DNA of 64,000 nt from an uncultured Planctomycetia bacterium (GCA_964634935.1 CAZWJT010000007.1:77808-141807); one strand, 5' to 3'. Positions 1,506 through 41,517 are shown, numbered from the stretch's first letter. Program-made: numbers and translations. The notes: generated by a model from the sequence alone, not told the origin.

Positions 1506-1531
1506 AAATTATCTGATCTGCCGGATACGTT

Positions 1532-2866: not shown

Positions 2867-3030
2867 ACTTTTTGTCCTATAAATGGAGTAAGCCACGCTC
2901 TCAACCCCCTAATGCTTTGGTTTGTTTAATCTTTTAGAATAATTTTCTATAACTAACCGCTATTTTTTGTTACAATAACCTTAAGGAAGGGTTTTTCAGG
3001 TGTCTAGTGTATCATTTAACAAAAGGGAAG

Positions 3031-4558: not shown

Positions 4559-4584
4559 ACCAAATATTTTTATAGAAACTATAC

Positions 4585-6722: not shown

Positions 6723-6723
6723 A

Positions 6724-9961: not shown

Positions 9962-9971
9962 GTATTATCAT

Positions 9972-11198: not shown

Positions 11199-11224
11199 CT
11201 TTTCATGTCGGGGTGATTGACGCG

Positions 11225-13347: not shown

Positions 13348-13370
13348 CAGGCTGAATTTTTCAGATAATT

Positions 13371-25117: not shown

Positions 25118-26387
25118 AGAGATTGTCGATAAACGATTTTTTATGTCGTATTTTTTCCTTTAAGATAAAATCCACAGCCTTCCGAAGTCTTTTGCGTAAG
25201 TGTTTTTGTGGATGCCACGGAACAGGCGTTTTCATTATATCACTTGCCGGATAGGGGACAAAACAATTCAGTTGCGCTATTTTCGGGATGATTTTCTTGT
25301 TTTCCTTAAGGAAGGCAAGCGTTTCTTGGAAATGAAAATCATCTTCGCCGGGATACCCAACCATCAGGCTTATCTCAAAGAATATTTTTTCTGCGATTAA
25401 GTTCTGAAACATGCATTTTGCATCTTCTTTCTGAAAGTATTTTCCCATTTTATTGAGTATATAATTTGAGCCTGATTCAAGTCCAAGAAAGATATTGATG
25501 CAGCCACTTTTTTTTATGAGTTTTAAGATATTTCTATCCATGTCTGGGCGGATAATCATCTGGGCTTGCCATTTTAAATCTAATTTCCTCCGGTTCAGTA
25601 ACTGACAAAATTTTTCCAGCCATGAGATGTTGAAGTTTAAGAGTGAATCATGAAATGTGAAATTCGAAACGTTGTATTTTTTCGAAAGATATTCCAGATG
25701 GTCTACGACATAGTGCGGAGAATGAAACCGAAATGCTGCTGTCAGGTTTTTTTCAGCACAAAACGTGCATTTTCCAATGCAACCACGGCTTGCCAGAAGC
25801 GCGATTGTTCTGTTGTATCGTTCCGGTTCAATTGAAGAAAGATTTAAGAAAGGAAGCGTGTCGAGATTTTCTATCTCTTGATGCAGATACATTGTTTGTG
25901 GTCGCGGTTTTTCTAAAATATCGAGGAGCGGTTTTTCTCCTTCTCCGATGACTTGAATGCCGCGTTCAAATAGCGCTCTATTGTTCTGGTGATATTGCCA
26001 GAGTATTTCTGGTCCGCCAAAAATTATCCTTGGTGATCCGCAGTGAGCGATTTTCTCCGCAAGCGCGAGAGAGAAGCTGAGATTTCTTCGAGAAAGAGAG
26101 AAGCCGACAAAGCGGTATTTTCTGGCTTTTCTGGAGAGTTCATGAATGTAATATGGAAGTTTATTTTTTGTTTCCGTGAATACATTGTTCTCAAAGGCAC
26201 TGTTTAGGGTATTCCAGTGGAACTTTAGGTGTGGCATGTGTTTTACGATCACGCAGTTTATATCCTGAACGTCGAAGGAAATTTTTTTGTGTTTTAAGAA
26301 ACTTTTAAGGTACGCTATGCTCAGCGGAGGGGTAGAAAGCGGGTGTGGCGGGCAGAGAAGGAGTAAGAAATCCTTCATTTCTTTCAT
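25065..26387 (-). CDS. B12-binding-domain radical SAM protein (class B)
   Basis: The N-terminus is a Rossmann-like, B12-binding-like domain. 'ASRGCIGKCTFCAE' is a CxxxCxxC motif. Confidence 0.6.
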   Translation of the reverse strand: MKEMKDFLLLLCPPHPLSTPPLSIAYLKSFLKHKKISFDVQDINCVIVKHMPHLKFHWNTLNSAFENNVFTETKNKLPYYIHELSRKARKYRFVGFSLSRRNLSFSLALAEKIAHCGSPRIIFGGPEILWQYHQNNRALFERGIQVIGEGEKPLLDILEKPRPQTMYLHQEIENLDTLPFLNLSSIEPERYNRTIALLASRGCIGKCTFCAEKNLTAAFRFHSPHYVVDHLEYLSKKYNVSNFTFHDSLLNFNISWLEKFCQLLNRRKLDLKWQAQMIIRPDMDRNILKLIKKSGCINIFLGLESGSNYILNKMGKYFQKEDAKCMFQNLIAEKIFFEISLMVGYPGEDDFHFQETLAFLKENKKIIPKIAQLNCFVPYPASDIMKTPVPWHPQKHLRKRLRKAVDFILKEKIRHKKSFIDNLYDHSQNQVAKNSFSHTN

Positions 26388-26441
26388 TCGGAACGTTCGG
26401 TTTGTTTTTGGCTAGATTATGTAAAAAGAAGTTAGAGTTTA

Positions 26442-26846
26442 TTAAAGTTCGTTGATTCCAACCGGCGTTAACAGAAAAGTTTTCCTACCCAAAGAGCCGG
26501 CAGGTGTGGCTAAGACATCGTACCATGTTTCATTGGCAATGCAGTCAAATGAGTGTCCTGACGTAATATTGCCTCCGCAGGCGGAGGATCTTAGGTAGCC
26601 TTCTGTCACCAAATAGTCGAAATCCGAGACTTCCCCCCCAGGAGTGAAGCGACCTCCAAAATCAGATGCGTAGTTTTCCAGGGCGGTTTGCATGGCTTTT
26701 AACCTGACCTTCGTTGAAGAATCATTCGCTGTTTTTTTGGCAGAGATCATTACTGGCACCGAGACTGACACAAGTAACGCGAGGATTGCGATAACAATCA
26801 TTATTTCAATAAGGGTAAAGCTTGATCTTCTTTGCATCTTTACCAT
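26442..26846 (-). CDS. prepilin-type N-terminal cleavage/methylation domain protein (pilin/pseudopilin-like)
   Basis: 'SSFTLIEIMIVIAILALL' has the class III signal-peptide architecture with E at +5. Residue -1 is Ser rather than the usual Gly. Confidence 0.65.
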   Translation of the reverse strand: MVKMQRRSSFTLIEIMIVIAILALLVSVSVPVMISAKKTANDSSTKVRLKAMQTALENYASDFGGRFTPGGEVSDFDYLVTEGYLRSSACGGNITSGHSFDCIANETWYDVLATPAGSLGRKTFLLTPVGINEL

Positions 26847-26947
26847 GATTCTTTTTAATTTTAAAATATTTTACCATAAATCGCCATAAGTACTATAAAA
26901 AAAAACTACTTGTGGTACGATAAGAGCAGAAAAGCGTATTTGTAATT

Positions 26948-28081
26948 ATGAAAATTTCCTTGTATCTCCATATTCCGTTTTGTAGCAAAAAATGTGCGTA
27001 CTGTACGTTTTATAGTATTCCGTATCACAGGGATACCGCTAAGCTTTTTATTCAGGTTCTTTGTCGGGAAATCAGAAGGCTCGAAAGCCAGAACTTTCAA
27101 TGTTCAACGATTTATATCGGCGGAGGAACTCCGTCGATTCTGGATTCTGATCTCATTGAAAAGCTACTGGAGCATCTTTCTAGATTCCTTGTAAGCAGCA
27201 AGGAGAATACCATTGAGGTTAATCCAGAGTCTTTCGACTTTCACAAGGCATCATTGTATCGTTCATACGGTTTAAACCGAGTCAGTATCGGAGTACAGAC
27301 TTTTTGCGGCGCGCAGTTAGCTCTTTTAGGGAGAAAGCATTCTTCACGGCAAGCCCAAGAGGCGGTAGCCGCTTGTGTGCAAGCAGGATTTAAGAATATC
27401 AGTGTTGATATGCTTTGTGGTTTACCAGGAAATTTTCAAAAAGACCTGGAAAGTCAATTTCAGGTAATAGTCAAAGCCCCCATTACTCATATTTCCTGGT
27501 ACATGTTATCGTGTGAAAAAGGTACTGAGTTATTTAGGAAGGTGAAAGCAGGCGGTATCCGTTTACCCAACGAAGAAGATGCTGTATGCCAATATTACTT
27601 TGGCCTTGATTTCCTAAAAAATAACGGTTTTCAGCATTATGAGATTTCTAATTTTGCCAAGAATGGTTTTTTGTGCCAGCATAATCTTTGTTACTGGAAT
27701 AAGCAGGCATATGTAGGGTTGGGGCCTTCTGCGGTGTCTTATCTGAATGGCCAAAGAGAACAGAGAGTTGCTTCGGTTGAGGCCTACATACGGAGAGCTC
27801 ATCGGAACGAATCAGTTATTTCCTGTTCTGAAAAACTGAGTTCTTTGCGCCAAGCCCGTGAATATGCCGCAATTTCCATACGAAGAATAGCCGGCATTGA
27901 TTATAAGGATTTTGAGGAAAAAACCTCCTTTGCTTTTGAATGTATCTATAAGAATGAAATATCTGTTTTACGAAAGCAAGGGCTGATTATTCCCAAAAAA
28001 CACAAACGTCTTACGTCTGGAGTTTGTTTAACGAGAAAGGGGATTATTTTCTGTGATTTTGTTTCACGAACACTTGTTTAA
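26948..28081 (+). CDS. hemW: radical SAM heme chaperone HemW (HemN-like)
   Basis: 'HIPFCSKKCAYCTF' is a CxxxCxxC motif. The HemN_C-like C-terminus is present. The protein is about 377 aa. Confidence 0.8.
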   Translation: MKISLYLHIPFCSKKCAYCTFYSIPYHRDTAKLFIQVLCREIRRLESQNFQCSTIYIGGGTPSILDSDLIEKLLEHLSRFLVSSKENTIEVNPESFDFHKASLYRSYGLNRVSIGVQTFCGAQLALLGRKHSSRQAQEAVAACVQAGFKNISVDMLCGLPGNFQKDLESQFQVIVKAPITHISWYMLSCEKGTELFRKVKAGGIRLPNEEDAVCQYYFGLDFLKNNGFQHYEISNFAKNGFLCQHNLCYWNKQAYVGLGPSAVSYLNGQREQRVASVEAYIRRAHRNESVISCSEKLSSLRQAREYAAISIRRIAGIDYKDFEEKTSFAFECIYKNEISVLRKQGLIIPKKHKRLTSGVCLTRKGIIFCDFVSRTLV

Positions 28082-28153
28082 AAACGATATTTATTCGGTT
28101 TTGGTTCATTGACTTTTTTAGTATTGTCTTTATACTACTTTTAGGAGCAAAAA

Positions 28154-29299
28154 ATGCGCATTTTTTGGATCACTGTCTTTATTTTTCTACTTTTCGGATT
28201 TTCTACTTTTCTTCCTGCAGAACAGAAACATGAACTACATGTTTTTTATTCTGAGCACTGCCATGCGTGCATCAAGGTAAAGAAAGAAATAATCCCTCGA
28301 ATAGAAGAACTCTATGGGGAGAAGGTTTCTGTTGTTTTTCTCGAGATCAGCAATCCACAAAATTTAAGCCGTCTCTTGGAAATAGACAATTTAGTCGGCG
28401 CGGCAAAGCCATTCGTTCCTACCATAGTTATAGCCGATAAGGTTTTTATTGGAAAAGATAGTATTGAGCAAGAGCTCCTTCCGTTTCTCGACTCCTTCCT
28501 TACAATGCCACGGCGGACCTCTTTCACGGCAACTTCGCCTATTGACTTGCAGGAATATTTCAAAAAATTTTCTGTACTCACTATTCTTGGAGCTGGCCTC
28601 ATCGATGGAGTTAATCCTTGCGCCTTTACGGTCATAGTTTTTTTTATCTCTTTTCTTACTTTTTACGGCTACAGCAAAAAAGAGCTTGTTTTTATCGGAA
28701 GCGGGTATATCCTTTCAGTCTTTTTAAGTTATCTTCTGATTGGTCTGGGGCTTTTTAAATTTCTCTATGCGTTGTCGGCTTTTTATTTCATCATCAAGAT
28801 TTTTTACTGGTGTATTGCGGGGTTGTGTTTTACCTTGAGCATTTTTTCTTTCTACGATTTTATAAAATTTAAGAAGACCAAAAACCCCGAAGAGTCTTCC
28901 TTAAGACTTCCGGTATTCTTCAAGCAGGCAATTCAGCGTTTTATCGGGAAAAGCTATCGGGGAAGGAGTCGCAAGGCAAATACTATCATCCTTTTCTTGG
29001 GGACTTTTGCGATAGGCGCAGTTATTTCTCTACTGGAAGCAGTATGTACAGGTCAAGTGTATCTACCAGTCATTACGTTTATCATGCGGGTTCCGGAGCT
29101 GCGGGTAAAGGCATTCTTTTACTTTTTCTTATACAATTTTATGTTTATCGTTCCGCTGATTCTTGTTTTTCTCTGTGCATTGTGGGGAGCTACATCGGAA
29201 GATTTTTCGCGCCTTATGAAGCGGTATTTTGGGACGATCAAGGTTTTAATGGGGATTCTGTTTCTAATTTTGGGAGGAGTTATGGTATGGGGCGTATAG
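28154..29299 (+). CDS. thioredoxin-fold (CxxC) domain fused to a CcdA/DsbD-like transmembrane thiol-disulfide transporter
   Basis: The signal/TM segment is followed by 'EHCHAC' in a Trx-like ~110-aa segment. The polytopic domain carries 'GVNPCAF' and 'AVCTGQ', which are membrane-embedded Cys residues typical of CcdA/DsbD. Confidence 0.5.
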   Translation: MRIFWITVFIFLLFGFSTFLPAEQKHELHVFYSEHCHACIKVKKEIIPRIEELYGEKVSVVFLEISNPQNLSRLLEIDNLVGAAKPFVPTIVIADKVFIGKDSIEQELLPFLDSFLTMPRRTSFTATSPIDLQEYFKKFSVLTILGAGLIDGVNPCAFTVIVFFISFLTFYGYSKKELVFIGSGYILSVFLSYLLIGLGLFKFLYALSAFYFIIKIFYWCIAGLCFTLSIFSFYDFIKFKKTKNPEESSLRLPVFFKQAIQRFIGKSYRGRSRKANTIILFLGTFAIGAVISLLEAVCTGQVYLPVITFIMRVPELRVKAFFYFFLYNFMFIVPLILVFLCALWGATSEDFSRLMKRYFGTIKVLMGILFLILGGVMVWGV

Positions 29300-29634
29300 T
29301 TTTTCTTTGGTTTTTATTCCTGGGTGTTTGTTTTGCAGAAAACGCGGACGTGAATGTTCTTGAGTTTAAATTCGGCGAAGTAATAGCGGGCGAACAACTT
29401 GAACACGTTTTTGTACTTCCGCGAGTGCGGGTTATTTCTTCTGTAACTTCATGCGAATGCATTTCATTACATTTTCTTGAGCGCGAAAATGCAACCCTGG
29501 TTAAACTCAAGTTCAATACGGCAGATTACTCAGGAGCAGTCGAACACTATGGTTTCGTAGCTACCGATAAGGGCAACTTCAAGCTTACCATTACTGCCTG
29601 GGTATTTTCAGGGGCTCTTGACGAATCCTCATGA
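29287..29634 (+). CDS. secreted DUF1573-like (Ig-fold) protein
   Basis: There is a signal peptide. 'FKFGEV..G......F...RVISSVTSCEC' resembles the DUF1573 'SCGCT' region. Confidence 0.4.
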   Translation: MGRIVFLWFLFLGVCFAENADVNVLEFKFGEVIAGEQLEHVFVLPRVRVISSVTSCECISLHFLERENATLVKLKFNTADYSGAVEHYGFVATDKGNFKLTITAWVFSGALDESS

Positions 29635-30896
29635 ATCTTCCTTTTCTTGTTTGTGCGGATAGCCGCGGAACTATTTATATTCATCCTTCCTTGCGTGTTG
29701 CGGCAAAAGCGTGGGATGTGTTTTGCGTTCCTTCCACTGCTGATTTTATCCCTGCCCCTGAAGGAACAATTTTTTACTATCTGCCAGGGCGTAATCCTGT
29801 GGGGTTTCATCGGGCAAGACAATCGTTTGAGCATGTTACGTCTTTCCATGGACGGAAGGTATTCGCGGTTTCTGCCTTTCTTCCCCCGGCGTATCTACGC
29901 CTTTATCATCCGGCCTGCTCTGTAGAAAAGTTTCAAATTCTTCCTCTTTGGAATTACATCGCTGCTGGCTGGTATGCGGGAAAATTTTATGTGGCAGCGC
30001 TGCGTATTGACAAAAAACTTCGGCAGAGCCCCCGGTTTTACAGAAATAGGCACTTACTTATTCAGAATATTGCTTCTATGCGCCGATTGTTTTCAAAGAA
30101 TCGTTTACTTCAGCATTTGTCTTTTTGTGCCTTGCGCTATAACTGTCTTGCTGCACAGAATTTCTTCTTACAGCGGTGGGAAGCTCCACTTCCGTGCTCT
30201 CCAGCATGCAACAGCAGGTGCATCGGTTGTTTATCGCTCCAGAAGGATTTTTGCGCTTCTCATGAGAGGATTTGTTTTGTGCCGACCGTTGAAGAAGTAT
30301 CGCAGCTTGGCATTTTTCACTTAAAAAGGGCATCAGAGGCAATCGTAAGTTTTGGGCAGGGTTGCGAGGGGGAACCTCTTTTAGAGGAGGATTTACTCGT
30401 TCATTCGATCCGGGCGATGCGGCAAGCGACATCGAAAGGAACGATCCATATGAATACAAACGCAAGCCGTCCTAAGAGCGTTGAACGGGTGTGCACCGCC
30501 GGGATTAATTCGATACGGGTTAGCTTAAATAGCGCCCGAGAAGATTCATACTGCCGGTATTTTAGGCCAGTTGGATATACTTTTTCCGATGTACTGGAAT
30601 CAATACGGATAGCCCGCAAGAAGAAAGTTTTTGTTTCGGTTAACCTCCTGACGTTTCCCGGATTTACCGATAGCTATCAGGAGGCAGAGGCTCTTTTTAC
30701 GTTTATCGCCAGAGCTGATATCCAGATGGTCCAGATGCGCAATCTCAATATCGATCCGGAGTATTATATGAGAACATTGCAGTGCAAACCAGGAAGTTCA
30801 ATGGGGATGCGTACGTTGGTGGCGCAGTTGCGCAAAAAATTCCGCCGGTTGAAAATCGGTTACTTTAATGTAAGCCGGAGTGAATTTGCTGGTTAA
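29631..30896 (+). CDS. radical SAM domain protein (function unknown)
   Basis: 'CNSRCIGC' is a CxxxCxxC motif. 'GQGCEGEPLL' is a GGE-type SAM motif. An N-terminal ~180-aa domain is of unknown function. Confidence 0.5.
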   Translation: MNLPFLVCADSRGTIYIHPSLRVAAKAWDVFCVPSTADFIPAPEGTIFYYLPGRNPVGFHRARQSFEHVTSFHGRKVFAVSAFLPPAYLRLYHPACSVEKFQILPLWNYIAAGWYAGKFYVAALRIDKKLRQSPRFYRNRHLLIQNIASMRRLFSKNRLLQHLSFCALRYNCLAAQNFFLQRWEAPLPCSPACNSRCIGCLSLQKDFCASHERICFVPTVEEVSQLGIFHLKRASEAIVSFGQGCEGEPLLEEDLLVHSIRAMRQATSKGTIHMNTNASRPKSVERVCTAGINSIRVSLNSAREDSYCRYFRPVGYTFSDVLESIRIARKKKVFVSVNLLTFPGFTDSYQEAEALFTFIARADIQMVQMRNLNIDPEYYMRTLQCKPGSSMGMRTLVAQLRKKFRRLKIGYFNVSRSEFAG

Positions 30897-30992: not shown

Positions 30993-33900
30993 ATGAATAA
31001 AAATCTACAGGACGAAAAATTTTCTGCTTTTCTGGATCCTTTTACCGGCGCCTACAACCGCAGTTTCCTTTTTCATATCTTGCCTGAAAAAATAGAAGAG
31101 ACGAAAACCAAAAAACAAAAATTTGCCCTTTTCATGATTGATTTGGATAATTTTAAGCACGTCAACGATACCTATGGGCATCTTGTAGGCGATAAAGTTC
31201 TTCGTGATATCGCGATGGTAATGCGTAAAGCATTGCGTGAACATGATTTTTTAATCCGTTACGCCGGAGACGAATTTTCGATTATCTTGAGTGATATTGA
31301 TTTACCAATTGTCTATAAGGTCGCCGACCGCATCTTAGAAGAGGTGCGCAGTATGAAGATTCAGACTGACCGGGGAGTGATTCAGCAGACGCTGAGTATG
31401 GGTTTTTCCCTTTTCCCGGCGGATGCAGAAACCCAGGATGCTTTAATCGATTGCGCGGACCAGGCGCTTTATCTTGCGAAAAAACGCGGTAAAAATAGTT
31501 ATGCTTCTTTTAAAGAAGTTGACATCAGCAACATCAGTCTCGAGGCCGGAATGCGTTTTTTCCCCTGCGCAAAATTTGTCGATAGAAAAAATGAGGCAAA
31601 GCTCGCTCACGACAAAGTTGCTCGGTGTGCGAAAGGTGGAAAGCTAGGAGGTATTATTGTTGTTGGAGAAACCGGCATCGGGAAAAGCCGTTTCCTGAAA
31701 GAGACTTCGCTCAGCGCAAGCGCGAGCGGCATGGAGGTTGTTTCTTTCGGGGCTTATTTGAAAAACAGTCTTGCTCCGTATTTTTTCTTGGTGCGTATTT
31801 TTGAAGATTATTTAAAGCAACGTGACGATTCGAATGGAACTTTTTCTCAAGAGATTATCGGGTCGCTCGAGAAGAACCAAAGAGAGATACTGAAGTTTTT
31901 TCTTCCTAAGATAGGGAAATCATCATTGAATGACCGGGATATTATTCGTGATGTTTCCGCGGTTTATGAAACATTTTCCTGTTTTCTTGCCGCTGTGATT
32001 CAGAAAACAGGAAAGCCGATATTTCTCTCCATTGATAATACGCAATATATCGATAATCATTCCTTGAAGTTTTTCTCCTATATCTTAAACAATAAGAAAA
32101 ATCTCAATATCCTGCTCTGGCTTTCGTTCGTTTATCCACTTCCACAGGGAGTATATGATATTAAGCTGACCGAGAAGTTTCTGGAAGATTTGAAGACCAT
32201 TCCTGAAATTTCAATCGTTCATCTGACAAATATTTCCGCTGGCGATACCCGTGATATGATTGCGGCTATTTTCTCCGGACTTGAGCATAACGAAGAATTT
32301 TGCCATTTGGTTTTTGAGATTACCAAAGGAGTTCCCTTTTTTATTGAGGAACTTTTAAAGTTTCTTTTGGAAAACTCCTGTATTTATTTTGAAAACAATG
32401 AGTGGCAGTTTAAGAATCAGATGAAAGATTCAATTCCCCGATCGCTTGAAGAGATCATTCGAACCCGGTTAAAAAGCCTCGATCCAGAACTTCGTGAAGC
32501 GATCCTGATTTCTTCGGTTATTGGAGAGGATATTAAGCCTGAAATTCTAAGCCAAATCCGCAACGCCAAGGAAGGTGATATCCTAGAGCTTCTTGATAAA
32601 GCGAAAAAGCTGAAGTTGGTTGGCGAGGAAAGCGGCAGTTTTAATTTTTTGAATGATACGGTTCGTAATGTGGGTTTGAGTGAAATACCTGAGGCCCGGC
32701 GGAAAACTATCTATCATAAGGTTTCAGATGTCTTATTTAATTACTACCGGGATAATCTAGAAAGCATGACGTCACAATTTATCGCGATGTTCAAGAAGAC
32801 CGAGAATATGGAGCAGCTGAGGAGTTTCACTGATATCGTTACTCAGAAGTCATCAGAGGTATTCCAGCCAGACCTTATTCTAAAATATTTGGAAGAAGTG
32901 CGTAAAGAAGATTCTGGTACGACTGCGGAACTTGAACAAATGGCTTCCCTCGACGAAACGCGGCTTCCTGAAGTCGTAGAAATTCTGGCAATTTTTCAGG
33001 GGGCAATGAAGAACTTTCGGTTATATCCCAAGGGCAGTAATTTACGAGAAACAATCTTAGAGAAATTTTTAAATACCTTAAAGAAAAATCTTGAGCGTTA
33101 TGGTCTCATCGTTATTTCAGAGGCTGAGAAATCGCTCGTTATTAATGATAAGCGCATTCCGCCTCGGGTTGCGAAAGGCATTGATTTGGACGCTATCGCA
33201 AAAATACTCATTAATAGGAATATCAAGTATATTTCTTTTGGGCGCGAGGTAACAAAAGAAGAGCTTGAGAAGTTTTTCGAAATTGTTTCGCTTGATCCTG
33301 AGATGCTTTTGGCTAACGGAGGATTTAACAAGTTACTTTCTGACCAGGGCATCGTGAATGTTACCGCAAAAAAAGGCGTCTATTCTCCAATCTCACGAGA
33401 TACGCCCGCAGGGGGAAAAGTGCGAGATAAGGTAGAGAATATGATGGTGCTTGATTTTATTCTCGGTAAAGTATCGGGGAAGGATCTGCAAAGTTCACAA
33501 CTTGCGGATGCGCTTATGAAGAACCCCAACCTCCTTTCGCAGCAGTTTCTCGACGCGGTGGAGTCGGCCCAAAAGATCGATCAATACTCGGATAAAATTG
33601 ATATTCTCTCGCAAAGCCTCTCGAAATTATATAATTTAGCAGATTTGGTTGAATCTGGAAAGATTACCCCGGAGCAATTAGGTGCGAACAAGGAAAAAGA
33701 AGCCTCCCCAGATGTAAAAGAAATTACTGATGAGCAGAAGGAGAAAAAAGTACCCGATGCAAGTTTCGTAGAGTCAGAAAAAACAAACAAGGAACCAGAG
33801 AAAAAACAACCGAAAAAGATTGTTTCCGAAGAGAAGAAAGAGATGAAGGTTGCGGAATCTTCTGAGGCGTCCGCTGAAGCAAAGATGCGAAATCTTGCCG

Positions 33901-35249
33901 ATAGCATTAAGCAGGTTTTTATGGGTTTTGATGCTGTTTCGCGGTTGAATCTGATCCGGAACATCGTGGACTTAAAAGACCCGGCAGTGAAAATATTAGG
34001 AACTATGACAGCAGAAGAAATCGTTGAAATGTTTTCTCAGGCACATAAGCAAGGAGCTTCTCTTTTCTTAATCAGTGAAGCGATGAAAAAAATAGAGTAT
34101 GTTTTTGAAGGGTTGGGCCGGGGGGACGAGCTTGTTCAGATTAAACAGAAGAGCAGCGGTATCTTTGGAGATGATCAAGAATATCTTTTCGATATGATGG
34201 GCGACGATAATCTTTGGAAAAGCCTGAATTTAAAAAAGAAGATAGACGCTTTTACCAAAGTTACATCGGAAGAATTTACTCAACTCAATAACGAAATACT
34301 TGCCGGACTCATTGTTGAGATGATCGAAAAGAATGAGAGTGATGAGTTTAAGAGGTTTTACGGAGCCTGTAAGAAGATAGCCCTTACTTCCGATAAGCTG
34401 AAAGAAAAGATCACGGCAGTTTATACTCAAGCGTTTACTTCGATCTATGCTCCGGGAAACGAGAAAATAAGAATCTCAGCCGTTATCTGCCTTTTGAGTA
34501 TTCTTTCCGACGCGCATGATGAAACAGACAGGGAAGCGTTGACTTTTGAGTTTATGCTTCTAAAAGATATTACCGAAAAACTGGGTTTCTATCAGTTTAA
34601 AAGAAAGGAAGAACGAATTGATTTCTCGGAGAAGATAAACTTTTTCTATCTGTTGTTTGAGCTTTTTAAGGAAAAAAGAGCAAGTTACGAATCTTTGGGC
34701 GATGTTGATAATGTTGCCATGATCAATAACTGGGTTAGTCTTTTCCATATTGAAGATATCGCATTCTCGCTCTTTGATTTCCATTTAAAAGGTATTATTA
34801 ATCTTGAAATTGTTGAAGAAAACATACGTATCGAAGCATATCTGCTCATGGAGAATTTTTTAGAGAAGATTTTTTCCGTGTTTACCAAGCAGCTGACGGA
34901 GGCAAACGATCCTTTTAATAAATTTGTTTTGGTGAGAAAGGTAAAAGATCTTTTCTCACATCTTACCGTTTCAGGCATTGAGAAGCTTCTTCAGCTGATT
35001 TACGATGTGTGCGTGCAGATTCCCGATGTTGTTGATCTTTTGGCATATGTGAACATCTCTCATCTGCAAAAGTTTTTACACGAGCGTTTCTTTACTTGGG
35101 ATGAACGGAGAAAAACCAAGATTATTGAAATGATCGGTATCTTGAAGATGAAGGATCTAGAAGGTTTCCTTCAGACGGTTTCAGAGCGTGAGTACAGCCC
35201 GGCGCTCAAGAAGTATGTCGCGCGTATTCGGGAGAACTTAGCGGGGTGA
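30993..35249 (+). CDS. GGDEF (diguanylate-cyclase-type) domain fused to STAND/AAA_16 NTPase and ~900-aa helical C-terminal region
   Basis: In the GGDEF domain the I-site 'REHD' is intact and the A-site is 'AGDEF'. Further in are the P-loop 'VVGETGIGKSRFL' and the AAA_16-typical 'GVPFFIEELL'. A K/E-rich low-complexity linker lies at about 33686..33890. Confidence 0.7.
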   Translation: MNKNLQDEKFSAFLDPFTGAYNRSFLFHILPEKIEETKTKKQKFALFMIDLDNFKHVNDTYGHLVGDKVLRDIAMVMRKALREHDFLIRYAGDEFSIILSDIDLPIVYKVADRILEEVRSMKIQTDRGVIQQTLSMGFSLFPADAETQDALIDCADQALYLAKKRGKNSYASFKEVDISNISLEAGMRFFPCAKFVDRKNEAKLAHDKVARCAKGGKLGGIIVVGETGIGKSRFLKETSLSASASGMEVVSFGAYLKNSLAPYFFLVRIFEDYLKQRDDSNGTFSQEIIGSLEKNQREILKFFLPKIGKSSLNDRDIIRDVSAVYETFSCFLAAVIQKTGKPIFLSIDNTQYIDNHSLKFFSYILNNKKNLNILLWLSFVYPLPQGVYDIKLTEKFLEDLKTIPEISIVHLTNISAGDTRDMIAAIFSGLEHNEEFCHLVFEITKGVPFFIEELLKFLLENSCIYFENNEWQFKNQMKDSIPRSLEEIIRTRLKSLDPELREAILISSVIGEDIKPEILSQIRNAKEGDILELLDKAKKLKLVGEESGSFNFLNDTVRNVGLSEIPEARRKTIYHKVSDVLFNYYRDNLESMTSQFIAMFKKTENMEQLRSFTDIVTQKSSEVFQPDLILKYLEEVRKEDSGTTAELEQMASLDETRLPEVVEILAIFQGAMKNFRLYPKGSNLRETILEKFLNTLKKNLERYGLIVISEAEKSLVINDKRIPPRVAKGIDLDAIAKILINRNIKYISFGREVTKEELEKFFEIVSLDPEMLLANGGFNKLLSDQGIVNVTAKKGVYSPISRDTPAGGKVRDKVENMMVLDFILGKVSGKDLQSSQLADALMKNPNLLSQQFLDAVESAQKIDQYSDKIDILSQSLSKLYNLADLVESGKITPEQLGANKEKEASPDVKEITDEQKEKKVPDASFVESEKTNKEPEKKQPKKIVSEEKKEMKVAESSEASAEAKMRNLADSIKQVFMGFDAVSRLNLIRNIVDLKDPAVKILGTMTAEEIVEMFSQAHKQGASLFLISEAMKKIEYVFEGLGRGDELVQIKQKSSGIFGDDQEYLFDMMGDDNLWKSLNLKKKIDAFTKVTSEEFTQLNNEILAGLIVEMIEKNESDEFKRFYGACKKIALTSDKLKEKITAVYTQAFTSIYAPGNEKIRISAVICLLSILSDAHDETDREALTFEFMLLKDITEKLGFYQFKRKEERIDFSEKINFFYLLFELFKEKRASYESLGDVDNVAMINNWVSLFHIEDIAFSLFDFHLKGIINLEIVEENIRIEAYLLMENFLEKIFSVFTKQLTEANDPFNKFVLVRKVKDLFSHLTVSGIEKLLQLIYDVCVQIPDVVDLLAYVNISHLQKFLHERFFTWDERRKTKIIEMIGILKMKDLEGFLQTVSEREYSPALKKYVARIRENLAG

Positions 35250-35253
35250 TAGC

Positions 35254-35706
35254 ATGGTGTTAACCCGGAAAAAAACAGCGCTTGTCGGGAAAATTCTTGT
35301 CGAAGCTGGCAGAATTACCGAAGAACAATTACGCGAAGCATTGTTACTGCAGAAGAATAAGTACCCCGATAAGAGTCTGGGCGCGATTCTTGTGTCGCTT
35401 GGGATCATCACCGAAGAGCAGATTTATACTGCGTTGACTCTGCAGTATGCGTATCCCTATATTTCGGTGAGTAGATATAAATTTCAGGAATCGGTTCTGG
35501 AACTCATTCCCAAAGAAGTTGCTATGAAGTATAATTTGGTGCCACTCGATAAATTTAAGGATATTTTGACAATCGCCATGTTGAACCCATTAGACCGGGG
35601 GGCAATTGAGAAAATAGAAGAAATCACCGGATTAAAGGTGCGAATCTTTGTGACCCCTCCCAAAGAATTGCAGGATGCGCTTGAGCTTGTCTATAAAAAC
35701 AAATAA
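35254..35706 (+). CDS. stand-alone T2SSE_N / MshE-N-type c-di-GMP-binding domain protein
   Basis: There are two tandem copies of the MshEN consensus: 'LVGKILVEAGRITEEQLREALLLQ' and 'SLGAILVSLGIITEEQIYTALTLQ'. The rest matches a GspE N-terminal domain. Confidence 0.7.
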   Translation: MVLTRKKTALVGKILVEAGRITEEQLREALLLQKNKYPDKSLGAILVSLGIITEEQIYTALTLQYAYPYISVSRYKFQESVLELIPKEVAMKYNLVPLDKFKDILTIAMLNPLDRGAIEKIEEITGLKVRIFVTPPKELQDALELVYKNK

Positions 35707-35708
35707 TC

Positions 35709-37001
35709 ATGCCAGAACAGCCAGACAATATTCCGAATCCCAATATCGAAAATGCAATGCCAGCGCCGGATGTTGAGATCCAAAAGGATGAGAAGGAATT
35801 TGTTGAAGTTACTTCGAGCGATGATATCGGAGCTATCGACAGTTTTGTCGTAAAGACCGTAAAAAAAATATTAACTGACGGTATCGATAAGCGTTCCAGC
35901 GATATATTTATTGAACCGCTCGAAGAAGCCATCCGCGTTCGTTATCGAATCGATGGTCTTTTAATAGAAGCAGGGCAGTACCCGCTTGAATATCTTTCTG
36001 GATTTGTCAGTCGAGTGAAGGTGCTTTCTAATTTGGATATCGCTGAGCATCGTTTTCCTCAAGATGGACGATTTCGGATAAAATATCGTGAGCGTTTCAT
36101 TGATTTTCGCGTTTCAACCCTGCCGAGTAATGTAGGAGAAAAAGTTGTATTGCGTGTTTTAGATAAAGGGAGTATTAATCTCGATATTGATGGTTTGAGT
36201 TTTGATGCGGAAACGGTTGACATACTGAAACGCAATCTTAAAAAACCGTATGGGATGATTCTTGTCTGCGGACCGACTGGATCCGGGAAGACTACAACTC
36301 TGTATTCTTGTCTTCGTTTTATTGATTCAGTGGAAACAAACATCATTACGGTTGAGGATCCTATTGAATACCAGTTTTTTGGCATCAATCAAGTCGCTGT
36401 CCAGGAGCATCTGGGTCTTACTTTTGCCGCTTCACTTCGTTCAATTTTACGGCAAGATCCGGACATAATTCTTGTTGGCGAAATTCGTGATTTTGAAACA
36501 GCGGACATTGCCGTGAAAGCTTCGCTTACCGGACATCTTGTTTTGAGTACTCTCCACACTACGACTTCAACGGGTGCGATTGTGCGGTTTATCAATATGG
36601 GGATTGAGCCATTTTTGGTTGCTTCTTCTTGTCTTGTTGCCGCTAGCCAAATGCTTCTCAGGAAGTTGTGCACGCACTGTAAGGAGCAGGTTGATTTGCC
36701 GGATGCTCTGAAGGCGGAATGTGAACGGAACAAGCTGCACTATACAGCGACAAAGATCTATAAACCGGCAGGGTGCCGTTTTTGTAACAACACAGGCTAC
36801 TTGGGGCGTCTCGGTATTATAGAAGCCGTGGAGATTACCCCGGCGATTCGGGAGCTTTTGATCCGTAAGGCAACTGAGAAACAACTCAGAGAAGCTTCTA
36901 TCCAGCAAGGAATGAAGAAACTGCGTGAAAAAGGGTTGGAAAAAATTCTTGATGGTTCAACGACTCTTGAAGAAGTCGTACGTACAACAAGCAGAGATTA
37001 A
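35709..37001 (+). CDS. GspE/PilB-family secretion ATPase core (N2 + C domains), MshE-like, lacking the N1 domain
   Basis: The motifs are Walker A 'GPTGSGKTTT', the Asp box, Walker B and the His box. The tetracysteine 'CTHCKEQ...CRFCNNTG' is present. The gene starts 3 nt after the stop of the MshEN gene. Confidence 0.7.
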   Translation: MPEQPDNIPNPNIENAMPAPDVEIQKDEKEFVEVTSSDDIGAIDSFVVKTVKKILTDGIDKRSSDIFIEPLEEAIRVRYRIDGLLIEAGQYPLEYLSGFVSRVKVLSNLDIAEHRFPQDGRFRIKYRERFIDFRVSTLPSNVGEKVVLRVLDKGSINLDIDGLSFDAETVDILKRNLKKPYGMILVCGPTGSGKTTTLYSCLRFIDSVETNIITVEDPIEYQFFGINQVAVQEHLGLTFAASLRSILRQDPDIILVGEIRDFETADIAVKASLTGHLVLSTLHTTTSTGAIVRFINMGIEPFLVASSCLVAASQMLLRKLCTHCKEQVDLPDALKAECERNKLHYTATKIYKPAGCRFCNNTGYLGRLGIIEAVEITPAIRELLIRKATEKQLREASIQQGMKKLREKGLEKILDGSTTLEEVVRTTSRD

Positions 37002-37006
37002 GAAGT

Positions 37007-38626
37007 TTGATGGAAAAGAACGCGTTTCCCCACACGGCATCCAGCGAGCGAGAAACTGATGAGTTTTTGTCTATTTGCCAGCAAGTTCAGTTTCCCCCTA
37101 TAGATCTGGCGCGATACGATATTCCCAAAGACGTTTTAAGCTTTATTCCAGAGCGGATTGCTCGAGCCTATCAGGTAATCCCTATTTCAAGGCTTGAGAG
37201 TATGTTGGTTGTCGCGGTTGCTGATCCGTTCAATGTTTTTGTTCTTGATAACTTGCGCCTTATTACTCAGAAAGAAATAAGCCCAGTGATCGGTTCTATT
37301 TCCCAAATTATTGACGCGATTGACCGGTGTTACGCTTTGCGTGAGGAAGGTTCAGGGGCTGATATTTCTGAAGATTCCGGCGAGAGCACTGACGGAAAAG
37401 GATTGGAGGTAGCTTCATTTAAAGAAGAGAAGTTTAATCTTGAAGAAGTTGCCAAGCTTTCCAAAGAAGCAAAGGTTGTCGGTTTGGTAAATGAGATTTT
37501 AAAAGAGGCAGTGAAGCGCCGTTCCAGCGATATTCATATCGAACCTTTTGAAACTATCGTTCGGACTCGCGTGAGAATTGACGGAATGCTTCATACGATT
37601 AAGGAAACAGAGAAGAAGTATCAGGAAGCGATCATTGCCCGACTAAAGCTCATGTCGCGTCTCGATATTACCCAGCGAAAAATTCCGCAGGATGGACGTT
37701 TTGGTTTTAAAGTTGAAGGGCGTGAGATCGATGTTCGTGTTTCCGTTCTTCCTATCGATTTTGGCGAAAAAATAGTAATGCGTCTTTTAGACCGGGCAAG
37801 CATTAATCTGTCGCTGGAAAAATTAGGATTTTCTCCGTATGCACTTGACGCATTTCAGAAGGCGATTGCTAAGCCGTATGGAATGATACTGTTAACGGGT
37901 CCTACGGGCTCCGGAAAGACAACGACGCTCTATACGATTCTCACGCATTTGAATACAATCGATAGGAATATAGTGACCATAGAAGATCCCGTTGAGTATA
38001 ATCTCAAAGGTATTACCCAGGTTCCCGTGCGCCACGATATCGGCCTTGATTTTGCTGGTATTTTACGTGCTACTTTGCGTCAATCTCCCGATATCATCAT
38101 GGTGGGGGAAATGCGTGATTTTGAAACAGTTGATATCGCGATGAAGGCTGCTTTGACTGGGCATATCGTTCTCAGCACTCTTCATACGAATGACGCTCCT
38201 TCCGCTATCACTAGGCTTTTGAATATGGATATCGAGCCATTTTTGATTTCTTCATCAATTAATATGATTGCTGCGCAGCGTTTAGTACGGAGAATTTGTC
38301 CAAAATGCAAGGAAAGTTACAAAGCAGATCTTACCACCCTTGAAGATGTTCCTGCCCAATATAGGAAGAAAGACGCAACACTTTATAGGGGCAAAGGATG
38401 TAATGAATGTGCGAATGGATATAAAGGTCGAGGAGCGGTTATCGAGGCTCTTATGTTTGACGATGAAATACGCGAGATGATCATGAAAGGTAAATCTCTC
38501 GATGAGATCAGAAATTACGCCAAGAAAGATGGCGGCATGAAAACCCTGCGCGAAGATGCAACTGAGAAAGTTTTACGGGGCGAGACGACTCTTGAAGAAA
38601 TGATCCGGGTAACCGTGGAGTTTTAG
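37007..38626 (+). CDS. pilB: type IV pilus assembly / type II secretion ATPase (GspE/PilB family), full length
   Basis: A T2SSE_N domain precedes Walker A 'GPTGSGKTTT' and the tetracysteine 'CPKCKES...CNECANG'. Confidence 0.8.
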   Translation: MMEKNAFPHTASSERETDEFLSICQQVQFPPIDLARYDIPKDVLSFIPERIARAYQVIPISRLESMLVVAVADPFNVFVLDNLRLITQKEISPVIGSISQIIDAIDRCYALREEGSGADISEDSGESTDGKGLEVASFKEEKFNLEEVAKLSKEAKVVGLVNEILKEAVKRRSSDIHIEPFETIVRTRVRIDGMLHTIKETEKKYQEAIIARLKLMSRLDITQRKIPQDGRFGFKVEGREIDVRVSVLPIDFGEKIVMRLLDRASINLSLEKLGFSPYALDAFQKAIAKPYGMILLTGPTGSGKTTTLYTILTHLNTIDRNIVTIEDPVEYNLKGITQVPVRHDIGLDFAGILRATLRQSPDIIMVGEMRDFETVDIAMKAALTGHIVLSTLHTNDAPSAITRLLNMDIEPFLISSSINMIAAQRLVRRICPKCKESYKADLTTLEDVPAQYRKKDATLYRGKGCNECANGYKGRGAVIEALMFDDEIREMIMKGKSLDEIRNYAKKDGGMKTLREDATEKVLRGETTLEEMIRVTVEF

Positions 38627-38669
38627 GTATGATAGAGGTGCTGACACAGGCGCGATAGAGGAGGCGAAT

Positions 38670-39866
38670 ATGGCATTTTATATTTATGAAGGAACGAACG
38701 CTCAGGGTAAGAAAGTAACCGGACGCATTGAAGCTTCCTCTGAACAGGAGGTCATTAATAAACTGCGTACGGAAAATGTTGCGATTCTTGATGTAAAAGA
38801 AGCGCGCACAACGAAATCTTCTGGTAAAGTTGGGATTAATGATCTTGTTGTTTTCTCGCGCCAATTTTCTTCGCTTATTTCCGCTGGTATTCCGCTTGTC
38901 CGGGGGCTTACTATTCTTGTTGAACAGGTGGAAAACAAGGCCCTCAAAGATATAATCCTTGCCATCAGCAAGAATGTCGAAGCCGGCGGTTCTTTAGCGG
39001 AAGCTTTGGCGAAATATCCGAATGTGTTTTCCCCGTTATTCATTAATATGGTTAATGTTGGTGAATTTAGCGGGAGTTTAGATGTTATGTTGGAGCGGCT
39101 CGCGATGTATCTTGAGTCTTACAGTAAGCTGGTTAAGAAGGTCCAAGGTGCTATGATGTACCCAATCGGCATCGTCATTATCGCAACCTTGGTCGTTTCG
39201 GTGATTATGATCTTTGTTGTACCGGGATTTACGAAAATTTTTGAGACTTTAGGAGGAGATCTTCCTCTGCCGACCCAGCTTCTGGTGAATTTCAGCGATT
39301 TTTTGCGTTCTTATTTTTTGTTTATTTTGTTGGGTCTTGGTGGCGCTGGTTTTGGTTTAGGCAAGTTCATTAAAACTCCAAAAGGGGTAGAGATCGGCGA
39401 AAAAATTAGAAGCAAGGCGCCGATTATCGGACCTCTCTATACAAAGATGGTTCTCGCCCGTTTTACTAAGACTCTCTCAACGCTTGTGAAAAGCGGAGTT
39501 CCCATCTTAAATGCTCTTGGTATTTCGGGGAAAACCTCAGGAAGCACAAAATTTGCTGTTGTTGTTGATAAGATTAAGGAAGAAGTTTCTCGTGGTAAGC
39601 GTATTGGGGATAGCATGAAAGAGGCAAAAATATTTCCGAATATGGTAGTCAGTATGATTGGGGTAGGCGAAGAAGGTGGTGATTTATCGGGCATGCTTGA
39701 GAAAGTTTCGGAAATATACGAGACAGACGTTGATAATGCCATTTCCAGCTTAATGTCGCTCCTTGAGCCCTTGATTATCGTTTTTCTTGGAGTAATTATC
39801 GGGGGTATTGTTGTGGCATTGTTTCTGCCTATACTTAAGATGCCCACTCTTTTACAACAGTCATAA
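38670..39866 (+). CDS. pilC: type II secretion system F-family platform protein (PilC/GspF)
   Basis: There are two T2SSF repeats and three TM segments. The N-terminus 'MAFYIYEGTNAQGKKVTG' is typical. Confidence 0.8.
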   Translation: MAFYIYEGTNAQGKKVTGRIEASSEQEVINKLRTENVAILDVKEARTTKSSGKVGINDLVVFSRQFSSLISAGIPLVRGLTILVEQVENKALKDIILAISKNVEAGGSLAEALAKYPNVFSPLFINMVNVGEFSGSLDVMLERLAMYLESYSKLVKKVQGAMMYPIGIVIIATLVVSVIMIFVVPGFTKIFETLGGDLPLPTQLLVNFSDFLRSYFLFILLGLGGAGFGLGKFIKTPKGVEIGEKIRSKAPIIGPLYTKMVLARFTKTLSTLVKSGVPILNALGISGKTSGSTKFAVVVDKIKEEVSRGKRIGDSMKEAKIFPNMVVSMIGVGEEGGDLSGMLEKVSEIYETDVDNAISSLMSLLEPLIIVFLGVIIGGIVVALFLPILKMPTLLQQS

Positions 39867-40153: not shown

Positions 40154-41467
40154 ATGAAAAAGCTAATATTAGCTTTAATTCTTACACTTGCTATCTCTGG
40201 ACTCGCAGTTGCCGCCGTGAATAATATTAAAGTAAGCGGTGACATCACTGCGCAGGCAATTACTCGCGATTTATCTTTAGGCGAAAATAGCATTGCTGCA
40301 AAAGATTCAGAAGATTTCTTGCTTTCTCAGGTTCGTCTGCGTTTTGACGCTGATTTATCTGAGAATGTTGCGGCAGTAGTTCAGCTCATCAATGAAAGAG
40401 TTTGGGGTGATGAAGGTTCTACTGACACCGACATTGATCTTGATCTTGCCTATGTTACCATGAAGGAATTTATCTATGCTCCGTTGACGCTTACTGTTGG
40501 ACGTCAGAATCTTCGCTTTGGAAAAGGCTTAATCGTTGGCGATCCTGACACAGACAATAACGTTGCTGCTACGGGGTCTAACTTATCGAACATCGCAGAT
40601 GATTTATCTCTGCGCAAGGCATTTGACGCAATTCGCAGCACATTAGAGTACACGCTTGCTGACAAACCGCTCATATTGGACATCATCTATGCAAAGGTAG
40701 AAGAGAATAATACTGATCAGGAAGACGATGTTACTCTTTGGGGTGGCAACGCGAATTACAAGTTAAGCGACAAGGTTACTGGCGAGATGTATTTCTTTGC
40801 CAAAGACCAGGACAGAGTGCTTGTAACTGAAGACGAAAACGACGTTGTGTACGCTATTGGTTTACGTGGCGATATTCAGGCAACAGAAAAGTTAGGCATC
40901 TATGGTGAATATGCTCGTCAGTTTGGTGATCGGGCAGAAGCCGCAACAAATCACAGCCATGTTGAAGCATTCGCAGTACAAGTTGGTGGCGACTATAAAT
41001 TTATGGACGAAAAGAACTCACTTATGGGTTTAAGCTACACCTATCTTTCTGGCGATAAGGACACGGGAGACAATTCCTACAAGGCTTGGAATCCTATGTT
41101 TGAAGACCAGAGAGTTGGCGAAATCGCCAATATTCTTTTCGACAACACCAATATGTGGTATATCAAGTTGAATGCATCAACGATGCCACGCGAAGACATT
41201 ACCGCAGGTTTAGACATTTATTATCTGAAACTTGCTCAGCTTGATTCTGACGCATTGTCAGGTAATGGAATTATCACTGTTGGCAATGAGCAGGAATTTG
41301 GCAACAAAGAGCTTGGTTGGGAATTTGATGCATCATTGAAGTATGACTATACTGAGGATGTGCAGCTTGGCTTAATCGGCGGCTGGTTCGTTCCAGGAAG
41401 TCATTTTGCTGACAGCAACGACAATACCGCTTATTCTATCCGCGGTACTTGCAGCGTAAACTTCTAA
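40154..41467 (+). CDS. putative outer-membrane beta-barrel protein (porin/alginate-export-like)
   Basis: A signal peptide is followed by D/G/T-rich alternating amphipathic strands. The C-terminal Phe ('...CSVNF') is typical of OMPs. Confidence 0.45.
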   Translation: MKKLILALILTLAISGLAVAAVNNIKVSGDITAQAITRDLSLGENSIAAKDSEDFLLSQVRLRFDADLSENVAAVVQLINERVWGDEGSTDTDIDLDLAYVTMKEFIYAPLTLTVGRQNLRFGKGLIVGDPDTDNNVAATGSNLSNIADDLSLRKAFDAIRSTLEYTLADKPLILDIIYAKVEENNTDQEDDVTLWGGNANYKLSDKVTGEMYFFAKDQDRVLVTEDENDVVYAIGLRGDIQATEKLGIYGEYARQFGDRAEAATNHSHVEAFAVQVGGDYKFMDEKNSLMGLSYTYLSGDKDTGDNSYKAWNPMFEDQRVGEIANILFDNTNMWYIKLNASTMPREDITAGLDIYYLKLAQLDSDALSGNGIITVGNEQEFGNKELGWEFDASLKYDYTEDVQLGLIGGWFVPGSHFADSNDNTAYSIRGTCSVNF

Positions 41468-41483: not shown

Positions 41484-41517
41484 GCCCCGCACTGTCATGG
41501 TGCGGGGCTTTTTTTTT
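41484..41517 (+). terminator. Rho-independent terminator
   Basis: The hairpin GCCCCGCAC-tgtcatg-GTGCGGGGC is followed by T10. Confidence 0.65.

Follow-up and report, generated by a model that had tools for sequence, protein, structure and literature searches.

MshEN is one of only three widespread receptor domains for cyclic di-GMP (c-di-GMP), and to our knowledge it has been characterised only when fused to an output domain, whether the ATPase of a PilB or MshE motor or the glycosyltransferase of NfrB. Here we describe a row of genes, at positions 30993-39866 of a 64,000-nucleotide (nt) stretch of DNA from an uncultured Planctomycetia bacterium (CAZWJT010000007.1:77808-141807; hereafter the window), in which this domain is encoded as a protein of its own. 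The row comprises a GGDEF-STAND protein, a stand-alone MshEN protein of 150 amino acids (aa), two PilB-type ATPases that we call PilBa and PilBb, and a PilC platform protein (Table 1). We read it as a five-gene operon for the motor of a type IV pilus or filament that has its own second-messenger input, is conserved in a clade of Candidatus Omnitrophota and relies on an MshEN protein acting in trans, and we put the probability of this reading at about 60%. A co-linear, self-contained module in which a GGDEF protein and an MshEN receptor-type protein accompany a pilus motor had been proposed from the DNA alone (the original prediction), and it holds up: the five open reading frames (ORFs) lie on the same (+) strand and the module recurs in 15 loci.

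Among described systems, the nearest in composition are V. cholerae MshE and the PilB or PilB2 proteins of M. xanthus, Chloracidobacterium and Clostridium, which share with the operon the MshEN fold (5HTL is the top structural match), two 24-residue motifs with their Gly, Leu and Gln residues, a PilB/GspE ATPase core (Walker A, Asp box, tetracysteine) and a PilC partner. In those proteins MshEN is the N-terminal part of the ATPase, whereas here it is a separate 150-aa protein and neither ATPase carries an MshEN_N subdomain; the operon further differs in having L and S in place of the lead arginines of the motifs, a 7-residue spacer between them, two tandem PilB paralogues and a dedicated cyclase gene. 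As in the FimX-PilZ-PilB systems of Xanthomonas and Pseudomonas, a c-di-GMP signal would reach PilB through separate proteins in trans, near the N-terminus of the ATPase. There, however, the sensors are a degenerate EAL protein (FimX) and a PilZ adaptor, and their target is an N-domain still present in PilB, whereas here the trans factor is MshEN/N1 and the ATPase has none of its own. The GGDEF-STAND protein we liken to STAND-coupled cyclases such as the mycobacterial adenylate cyclase-ATPase-TPR proteins and to MalT-type STAND regulators, with which it presumably shares the plan of a dimerising cyclase domain, a P-loop STAND NTPase and a helical repeat sensor; its own cyclase is an N-terminal GGDEF domain with an AGDEF active site.

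Single features of the operon have parallels elsewhere. Motif 1 of the window protein starts with L, a residue that also replaces a lead arginine in the GSPII-B domain of Thermus thermophilus PilF; motif 2, by contrast, starts with Ser, the equivalent of D266 is Asn (N111), and PilF has its GSPII domains not free but in three copies joined to its ATPase. DgcJ of E. coli is a documented cyclase bound to an MshEN effector, NfrB (PMC8669469). The likeness lies in a cyclase dedicated to an MshEN effector, the Omnitrophota GGDEF gene being immediately upstream of the stand-alone MshEN gene (one gene away in the Ratteibacteria locus L014); in contrast, NfrB carries its MshEN fused to a glycosyltransferase, with exopolysaccharide synthesis rather than a pilus motor under its control, and DgcJ is not a STAND protein. 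Finally, A. baylyi uses two extension ATPases, PilB and TfpB, in one system (PMC11656802), and so resembles the operon in having two phylogenetically distinct PilB-family ATPases per filament system. Unlike PilBa and PilBb, the A. baylyi proteins are full-length and not encoded in tandem, and the NCBIfam TfpB model gives PilBa and PilBb only 409 and 437 bits (cut-off 850), below their PilB-model scores.

To place the operon among its relatives, loci were gathered from assembly neighbourhoods and from one scan of GTDB species representatives with our own hidden Markov models (HMMs). Fifteen of them encode a PilBa without an N-terminal domain (the window, L001-L005, L008-L013, L018, L059 and L060; the N-less loci), and an MshEN gene of 142-157 aa lies directly upstream of PilBa in 15/15, an outcome of the synteny comparison that agrees with the predicted arrangement. 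The two genes are separated by -65 to +13 nt, and once by +144 nt. Upstream sequence is available for 14 of the loci, and in 13 of these a GGDEF-AAA_16 gene (1332-1366 aa) precedes the pair; a second PilB-type gene follows PilBa in 15/15, and PilC comes next in 14/15. By the names that homologues carry in their source databases, the window belongs to Candidatus Omnitrophota. The top ~68 homologues of PilBa are all 379-438 aa long and match T2SSE only; full-length relatives (565-584 aa) appear only at ~55% identity. Because a secretin gene and PilM adjoin the cassette in L001, L002 and L005, together with PilN/PilO-type genes in L001 and L005 and pseudopilin genes in L001, we assign the cassette to the motor of a type IV filament machine. 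L002 also has a single-domain PilZ gene (L002:636-1010) beside those for PilM and the secretin, so that another kind of c-di-GMP receptor may act on the same machine as well.

Within the window, successive genes of the operon are separated by 4, 2, 5-8 and 43 nt (PilBb can alternatively start at an ATG at 37010, giving 538 aa). The MshEN-PilBa junction reads TAA tc ATG, so the gap is 2 nt and not the 3 nt first given, and the two ORFs are in different frames. Such close spacing in different frames could also be the mark of an artefact or pseudogene, a single gene spanning 35254-37001 that was broken by a sequencing or assembly error, as the original prediction had itself allowed. However, the two-gene layout occurs in 14 other independent assemblies with gaps of -65 to +144 nt, the relation between the two reading frames varies among loci, the ~68 top homologues of PilBa are uniformly 379-438 aa long, and PilBa begins with a start codon of its own and an N-terminus that resembles a linker. 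Across 2453 nt, moreover, the window is reproduced exactly by an independent Logan assembly. Together, the conserved layout, the varying frames and the identical assembly exclude a sequencing error, and we regard a broken gene as extremely improbable. A stop codon, the 2-nt gap and the change of frame mean that receptor and ATPase are not the single polypeptide of MshE-type motors.

The two ATPases are truncated to different extents. As predicted, 35709..37001 encodes an ATPase core whose only Pfam match is T2SSE: PilBa lacks the whole N1/MshEN domain and is built from the remnant of a linker, acidic and rich in Pro, joined to N2 and the C-terminal ATPase domain, with residues 19-429 aligning to M. 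xanthus PilB 154-563. PilBb had been taken for a second full-length PilB. It comprises N1/MshEN_C, linker, N2 and C-terminal ATPase domain (residues 13-534 align to M. xanthus PilB 46-560), and since it begins at about residue 46 of M. xanthus PilB and lacks the four-helix bundle of MshEN_N, "full-length" is wrong. The only MshEN_N bundle in the operon is that of the stand-alone MshEN protein. Both ATPases keep the Walker A motif (GPTGSGKT), the GEIRD box (IILVGEIRD in PilBa, IIMVGEMRD in PilBb) and two CxxC pairs (CTHC and CRFC; CPKC and CNEC), and are therefore of the PilB/GspE type and not of the PilT type, from which the tetracysteine zinc motif separates PilB and GspE. Their cores are 47% identical and fall into separate orthologous groups. 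The PilB equivalog model TIGR02538 gives PilBa 518.6 bits (profile positions 164-563) and PilBb 582.3 bits (51-563) against a cut-off of 675.65, and the GspE model TIGR02533 gives 502 and 572 bits against 630; both proteins stay below these cut-offs because their N-terminal parts are missing. The PilC protein scores 369 bits with the NCBIfam GspF model and 353 bits with the PilC model, under the equivalog cut-off in each case.

Several lines of evidence mark the 150-aa protein as an MshEN domain, made up of a four-helix bundle (MshEN_N) and the MshEN_C/N1 subdomain. It was predicted to match the MshEN models, and it does so above threshold for both PF05157 (60.9 bits, cut-off 23.1) and the 53-residue NCBIfam model NF053729, "c-di-GMP_motif" (56.7 bits, cut-off 38, aa 12-64). 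A phmmer search of the Protein Data Bank (PDB) matches it to Thermus PilF, the N-terminus of Geobacter PilB (residues 9-147 align to 24-162) and the MshEN structure 5HTL. The AlphaFold2 (AF2) model (pLDDT 84) has helices at 11-17, 23-35, 42-48 and 54-65 followed by a beta-alpha unit, and its top Foldseek matches are chains A and B of 5HTL (TM 0.69-0.76, E 2e-10; 0.72-0.76 for the best match), which is V. cholerae MshEN bound to c-di-GMP.

The canonical MshEN motif consists of two copies of RLGxx(L/V/I)(L/V/I)xxG(L/V/I)(L/V/I)xxxxLxxxLxxQ separated by a 5-residue spacer. A near-strict regular expression for this motif finds two matches in the six-frame translation of the window, both in the 150-aa ORF. 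Of the tandem consensus copies originally claimed, the two 24-residue motifs have the Gly, the core hydrophobics, the LxxxL and the Gln (with Ile, I57, for the first Leu of the pair in motif 2); both lead arginines are missing, and the spacer has 7 residues, as it also does in Geobacter PilB. Motif 1 deviates at positions 1 (L), 2 (V) and 11 (R), and position 1 of motif 2, Ser in the window, is M, L, R, P, V, F, T or C in orthologues. G12, G43, Q33, Q64, L26 and L30 are invariant in 19/19 stand-alone homologues; the invariant Gly, Gln and Leu positions are ligand contacts in 5HTL, and mutation of the two glycines of V. cholerae MshE abolishes binding (PMC5013675). By contrast, where sister genomes have a PilBa or PilBb with a fused N-domain, these domains are substituted at the first Gly in 7/7, at the second Gly in 6/7 and at the last Gln in 7/7. 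On these residues, the 150-aa protein is likely to bind c-di-GMP.

The GGDEF-STAND protein is likewise a likely source of the ligand. As predicted, the ORF at 30993..35249 has a Pfam GGDEF domain, although its active site reads AGDEF (RYAGDEF) and not GG(D/E)EF. All catalytic residues other than the first Gly are present, in the elements DPFTGAYNR, DLDNFKHVNDTYGH..GD and RYAGDEF, the RxxD I-site is REHD, and TIGR00254 gives 153.6 bits (cut-off 37.4). Across 22 family members the metal- and GTP-binding DxD, FK, ND, GH, GD and K163 are invariant, as are G228, G230 and K231 of the Walker A motif (GETGIGKS) and the Walker B Asp, D348. AGDEF is a signature of the family with N-terminal GGDEF and AAA_16 domains, being found in 84/90 members (window 30993-35249 and P0286-P0405), and the V. 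cholerae protein VCA0965 is an active cyclase with AGDEF (PMC3974145). We therefore predict that the protein makes c-di-GMP. The RxxD I-site is missing from 34/84 (~40%) of the AGDEF members.

The remainder of this protein has the build of a STAND NTPase, a P-loop module followed by a helical region. In its AF2 model (pLDDT 77), the GGDEF domain superposes on solved GGDEF domains with a root-mean-square deviation of 1.4 Å (TMt 0.92), and an alpha/beta NTPase at about aa 199-410 is followed by long helical arrays. The first Foldseek match other than GGDEF domains is the STAND-TPR protein 6MFV (E 2.4e-9), and HEAT_2 is detected in orthologues; phmmer of the STAND body against the PDB gave no match. 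A Lys/Glu-rich stretch at about aa 897-959, predicted to be disordered (pLDDT <50), corresponds roughly to the extra length of the protein over its ~1345-aa orthologues. There are more than 100 GGDEF-AAA_16 clusters, of which those with a labelled source are mostly from Omnitrophota and some from Planctomycetota; TPR variants occur in TA06 and WOR-3. Family members are annotated in databases only as "diguanylate cyclase", and a literature search that left out most subscription-journal papers found no characterisation of the family.

A GGDEF-domain gene also stands beside a free MshEN gene at sister loci of different composition, and the two look like a recurring two-gene unit. In L006 and L007, degenerate GAF-GGDEF proteins with FSDREF (L006:8114-9538) and FGDNDF (L007:8054-9499) precede a stand-alone MshEN of another type, and in L014 a GGDEF protein with no recognisable GGDEF signature (L014:5743-6744) lies one PilT-like gene away from the stand-alone MshEN. 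All three lack the ND..GH substrate residues and are probably non-catalytic partners. L006 additionally has a GGDEF-STAND gene and a second MshEN gene before PilC; its pilus cluster as a whole (L006:8114-20416) holds three GGDEF-domain genes (degenerate GAF-GGDEF, REC-GGEEF and AGDEF-STAND), two stand-alone MshEN genes, two full-length PilB paralogues and PilC.

Sister loci of this kind also indicate how the operon arose. In the Omnitrophota loci L006, L007 and L021, a stand-alone MshEN gene precedes a PilBa that has an MshEN domain of its own, followed by PilBb and PilC (in L007 and L021 PilC adjoins PilBb); the stand-alone MshEN gene of L014 comes before a full-length PilB. In the tree of ATPase cores, PilBa and PilBb are two orthologous groups with parallel branching, and the full-length PilBa of L006 and L007 forms the sister group of the N-less clade. 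In the domain trees, the stand-alone MshENs linked to N-less ATPases form a clade (80% bootstrap), and the PilBa N-domains form a separate one (84% bootstrap) that never joins it; the window protein groups with the other stand-alones, sharing their G/G/Q/Q and NPL signature. Sister-locus synteny and both kinds of tree thus point to domain loss beside a pre-existing free receptor and not to fission. The most parsimonious course would be that the free MshEN gene came first, after which PilBa lost its whole N1 domain and PilBb its bundle.

The alternative, implied when the ATPase was first described as a split MshE-like protein, is that one such gene was cut into a receptor gene and an ATPase-core gene whose products reassemble. 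The domains are indeed complementary, the 150-aa protein corresponding to Geobacter PilB 24-162 and PilBa starting at about residue 178; their junctions, of 2 nt or overlapping, suggest translational coupling; and the monophyly of all stand-alone MshENs reaches only 42% bootstrap. Fission does not account, however, for a stand-alone MshEN at the same position before the full-length PilBa of L006, L007 and L021 and the full-length PilB of L014, nor for a PilBa N-domain clade that excludes the stand-alones with which the window protein groups, and it would also require the loss of an older stand-alone gene. We consider it quite unlikely; the term "split gene" suits the layout as it now is, but not its origin. 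In an unclassified metagenome-assembled genome (L016:207-3931), the gene for a 366-aa protein of two MshEN domains, without an ATPase, stands before those for a 411-aa N-less T2SSE ATPase and PilC, apparently an independent instance in which the MshEN receptor is detached and the PilB next to it truncated.

Taken together, these features suggest a plausible route by which the operon could couple a signal to filament extension. A signal perceived by the STAND NTPase and its helical sensor would cause oligomerisation, which would pair the GGDEF domains and lead to local synthesis of c-di-GMP, with the RxxD I-site capping output. The free MshEN protein would bind this c-di-GMP and act in trans on the motor, most likely by giving PilBa its missing N1 module, and the N1 module so supplied would promote docking to the PilM/PilC platform or activation of the hexamer. 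Filament extension would then track c-di-GMP, as it does in V. cholerae MshE, by way of a detachable sensor subunit.

In addition to the weak monophyly of the stand-alone MshENs, several observations weigh against this reading. The secretin and PilMNO genes are elsewhere and not in the window, and the PilB/GspE and PilC/GspF models score alike, all below their cut-offs, so that the motor would fit a retractile pilus or a pseudopilus resembling that of a type II secretion system. L004 keeps the MshEN-PilBa-PilBb-PilC core without a GGDEF-STAND gene, from which we conclude that the cyclase is not obligatory, and L060 has no PilC directly downstream. In the 150-aa protein, the lead Arg is missing from both motifs (LVG in motif 1, SLG in motif 2), the spacer has 7 residues against 5 in the consensus, and the Ser at position 1 of motif 2 lies outside both the relaxed (R, K, P or N) and the extended (R/K/L) consensus sets. 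The degeneracy of the fused domains in sister genomes is seen solely in their Gly and Gln changes: NF053729 accepts the PilBa N-domains that are fused in L006, L007 and L014 (55-62 bits) and rejects only the PilBb N-domains, so this model failed as a means of telling intact stand-alone from degenerate fused domains, and we make no claim that the fused domains lost binding. An AGDEF active site, finally, can be inactive, as in NbdA.

Some of these points could mean that the 150-aa protein has given up c-di-GMP binding and is now only a structural N1 subunit or adaptor, with the GGDEF-STAND protein signalling to other targets or acting as a non-enzymatic I-site receptor or scaffold. The absent arginines, the Ser of motif 2, the possible inactivity of AGDEF and the missing GGDEF gene of L004 would all be in keeping with this, as would the degenerate GGDEF genes that precede a stand-alone MshEN, immediately in L006 and L007 and with one PilT-like gene between in L014; they indicate that a non-catalytic GGDEF partner is tolerated at this position. 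Nevertheless, the Gly and Gln residues that contact the ligand and the Leu residues of motif 1 are strictly conserved in 19/19 stand-alones, and the metal- and GTP-binding residues of the GGDEF domain are invariant. Thermus PilF GSPII-B, too, binds c-di-GMP at 6 nM with K and L for the two arginines, on the strength of which the consensus was widened to (R/K/L)LG (PMC11731258); the wider form covers the L of motif 1 but not the Ser of motif 2. A receptor that has lost its ligand is thus in our view unlikely.

The main rival to an MshEN that supplies PilBa with its N1 module is one that acts as a c-di-GMP-dependent switch or decoy, either competing with the N1 of PilBb for the platform or picking the PilB paralogue that engages PilC, and thereby setting the balance of initiation and processivity or of extension and retraction. 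Neighbouring PilB paralogues, each cut back differently at its N-terminus, are a conserved feature, N1 domains are presumed to touch the stator or platform (PMC11656802), and A. baylyi PilB and TfpB have distinct roles. A PilT-like ORF was found neither in the window nor in any of the 15 N-less loci (the rest of each genome was not searched). Such an ORF usually follows PilB in the canonical PilB-type loci that we recovered from other phyla, and for want of an adjoining PilT the operon is not a canonical pilB-pilT-pilC cassette. It is this absence beside all 15 cassettes that makes a switch attractive. On the other side, the argument is purely inferential, PilT could be encoded elsewhere given that loci rather than whole genomes were searched, and binding of c-di-GMP to MshEN activates extension in the systems characterised so far; we rate the switch as rather unlikely.

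In a bolder version, the free MshEN protein could be a c-di-GMP-gated, exchangeable N1 subunit, or "clutch", that chooses which truncated PilB engages PilC/PilM and is fed locally by its cognate STAND-controlled AGDEF cyclase. We hold this to be speculative and of low probability. Were it true, Omnitrophota would switch filament dynamics without a PilT gene being seen beside the cassette, and the protein would be the first MshEN domain to act as a trans-acting adaptor.

A free MshEN protein is not new in itself, since metagenomes often encode stand-alone and multi-MshEN proteins: an MshEN profile retrieves 44,307 cluster representatives, many of them single-domain proteins of ~150 aa. What appears to be undescribed is the conserved cassette of a GGDEF-domain gene, a free MshEN, two bundle-less PilB paralogues and PilC, as does the AGDEF-STAND cyclase family; a literature search in which most subscription-journal papers were not covered found no description of a stand-alone MshEN adaptor, of GGDEF-STAND proteins or, for Omnitrophota, of pili or c-di-GMP. 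The structural and evolutionary statements made here are well supported, and the signalling mechanism is, from sequence, plausible. The bundle-bearing N-domain is gone from both motor ATPases and survives as a strictly conserved free protein, which makes the cassette a natural in-trans experiment. With it one could ask what N1/MshEN does for a PilB motor, whether local pairing of cyclase and receptor holds beyond the model proteobacteria, and in what way a GGDEF cyclase is gated by a STAND switch. The control of surface filaments in Omnitrophota, organisms that are small and possibly host-dependent, is a further question on which it bears.

Table 1. Features of the operon and the neighbouring porin gene in the window
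Feature	Position	Strand	Evidence
GGDEF-STAND protein, 1418 aa	30993..35249	+	Pfam GGDEF aa 12-168 E 1.7e-41; AAA_16 aa 195-373 E 1.9e-10
Stand-alone MshEN protein, 150 aa	35254..35706	+	Pfam MshEN PF05157 aa 65-148 E 1.2e-16
c-di-GMP motif 1, aa 10-33, LVGKILVEAGRITEEQLREALLLQ	35281..35352	+	direct sequence reading
c-di-GMP motif 2, aa 41-64, SLGAILVSLGIITEEQIYTALTLQ	35374..35445	+	direct sequence reading
PilBa, PilB/GspE-type ATPase, 430 aa	35709..37001	+	Pfam T2SSE only, aa 44-425 E 3.8e-128
PilBb, PilB-type ATPase, 539 aa from TTG start	37007..38626	+	Pfam MshEN aa 30-113 and T2SSE (9e-135)
PilC/GspF platform protein, 398 aa	38670..39866	+	Pfam T2SSF x2, E 1.6e-64
Porin-like outer-membrane protein	40154-41467		Pfam Alginate_exp E 3e-23

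Scans of the window agree with the original prediction that there are no secretin or pilMNO genes nearby and that a porin-like gene lies downstream. Neither Pfam on the submitted ORFs of at least 100 aa nor our own HMMs on all ORFs of at least 50 aa detected a secretin, PilMNO or PilT in the 64 kb, and the only related gene is a pilin-like ORF on the - strand with an N_methyl motif (26442-26846). A scan for promoters and terminators returned counts not above those of shuffled sequence, with no strong terminator inside the operon. Downstream follow the Alginate_exp-type porin and then, by Pfam, the housekeeping genes rplU, obg, proB and proA. The porin, which also has weak matches to the DESULF_POR1 and LbtU porin models, has a promoter-like upstream region of its own and a strong terminator at 41484-41508. 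We rejected it as a part of the module: it is not beside the cassette in any related locus and is therefore probably unrelated. In L059 and L060, genes for large beta-helix/NosD-like proteins, some with a weak Phage_depo_C match, come right after the cassette (L059:9273-12906, L060:9855-13882), and in L060 they occupy the place of PilC.

Upstream of the operon, the window holds a dense cluster of radical-SAM genes (22034-30896), with an SPL-like gene at 22034-23425 (-) and further members at 24266-25117, 25065-26387, 26948-28081 and 29631-30896. The same cluster includes a GT2 glycosyltransferase gene, the pilin-like ORF and two ORFs without a Pfam match (28154-29299 and 29044-29634). Further upstream, a large polysaccharide-biosynthesis cluster (37-16396) encodes methyltransferases, GT2 and GT4 glycosyltransferases and a Polysacc_synt flippase, along with a heparinase II/III-like protein, a radical-SAM/SPASM protein, a formyltransferase, an asparagine synthase and a UDP-GlcNAc 2-epimerase.

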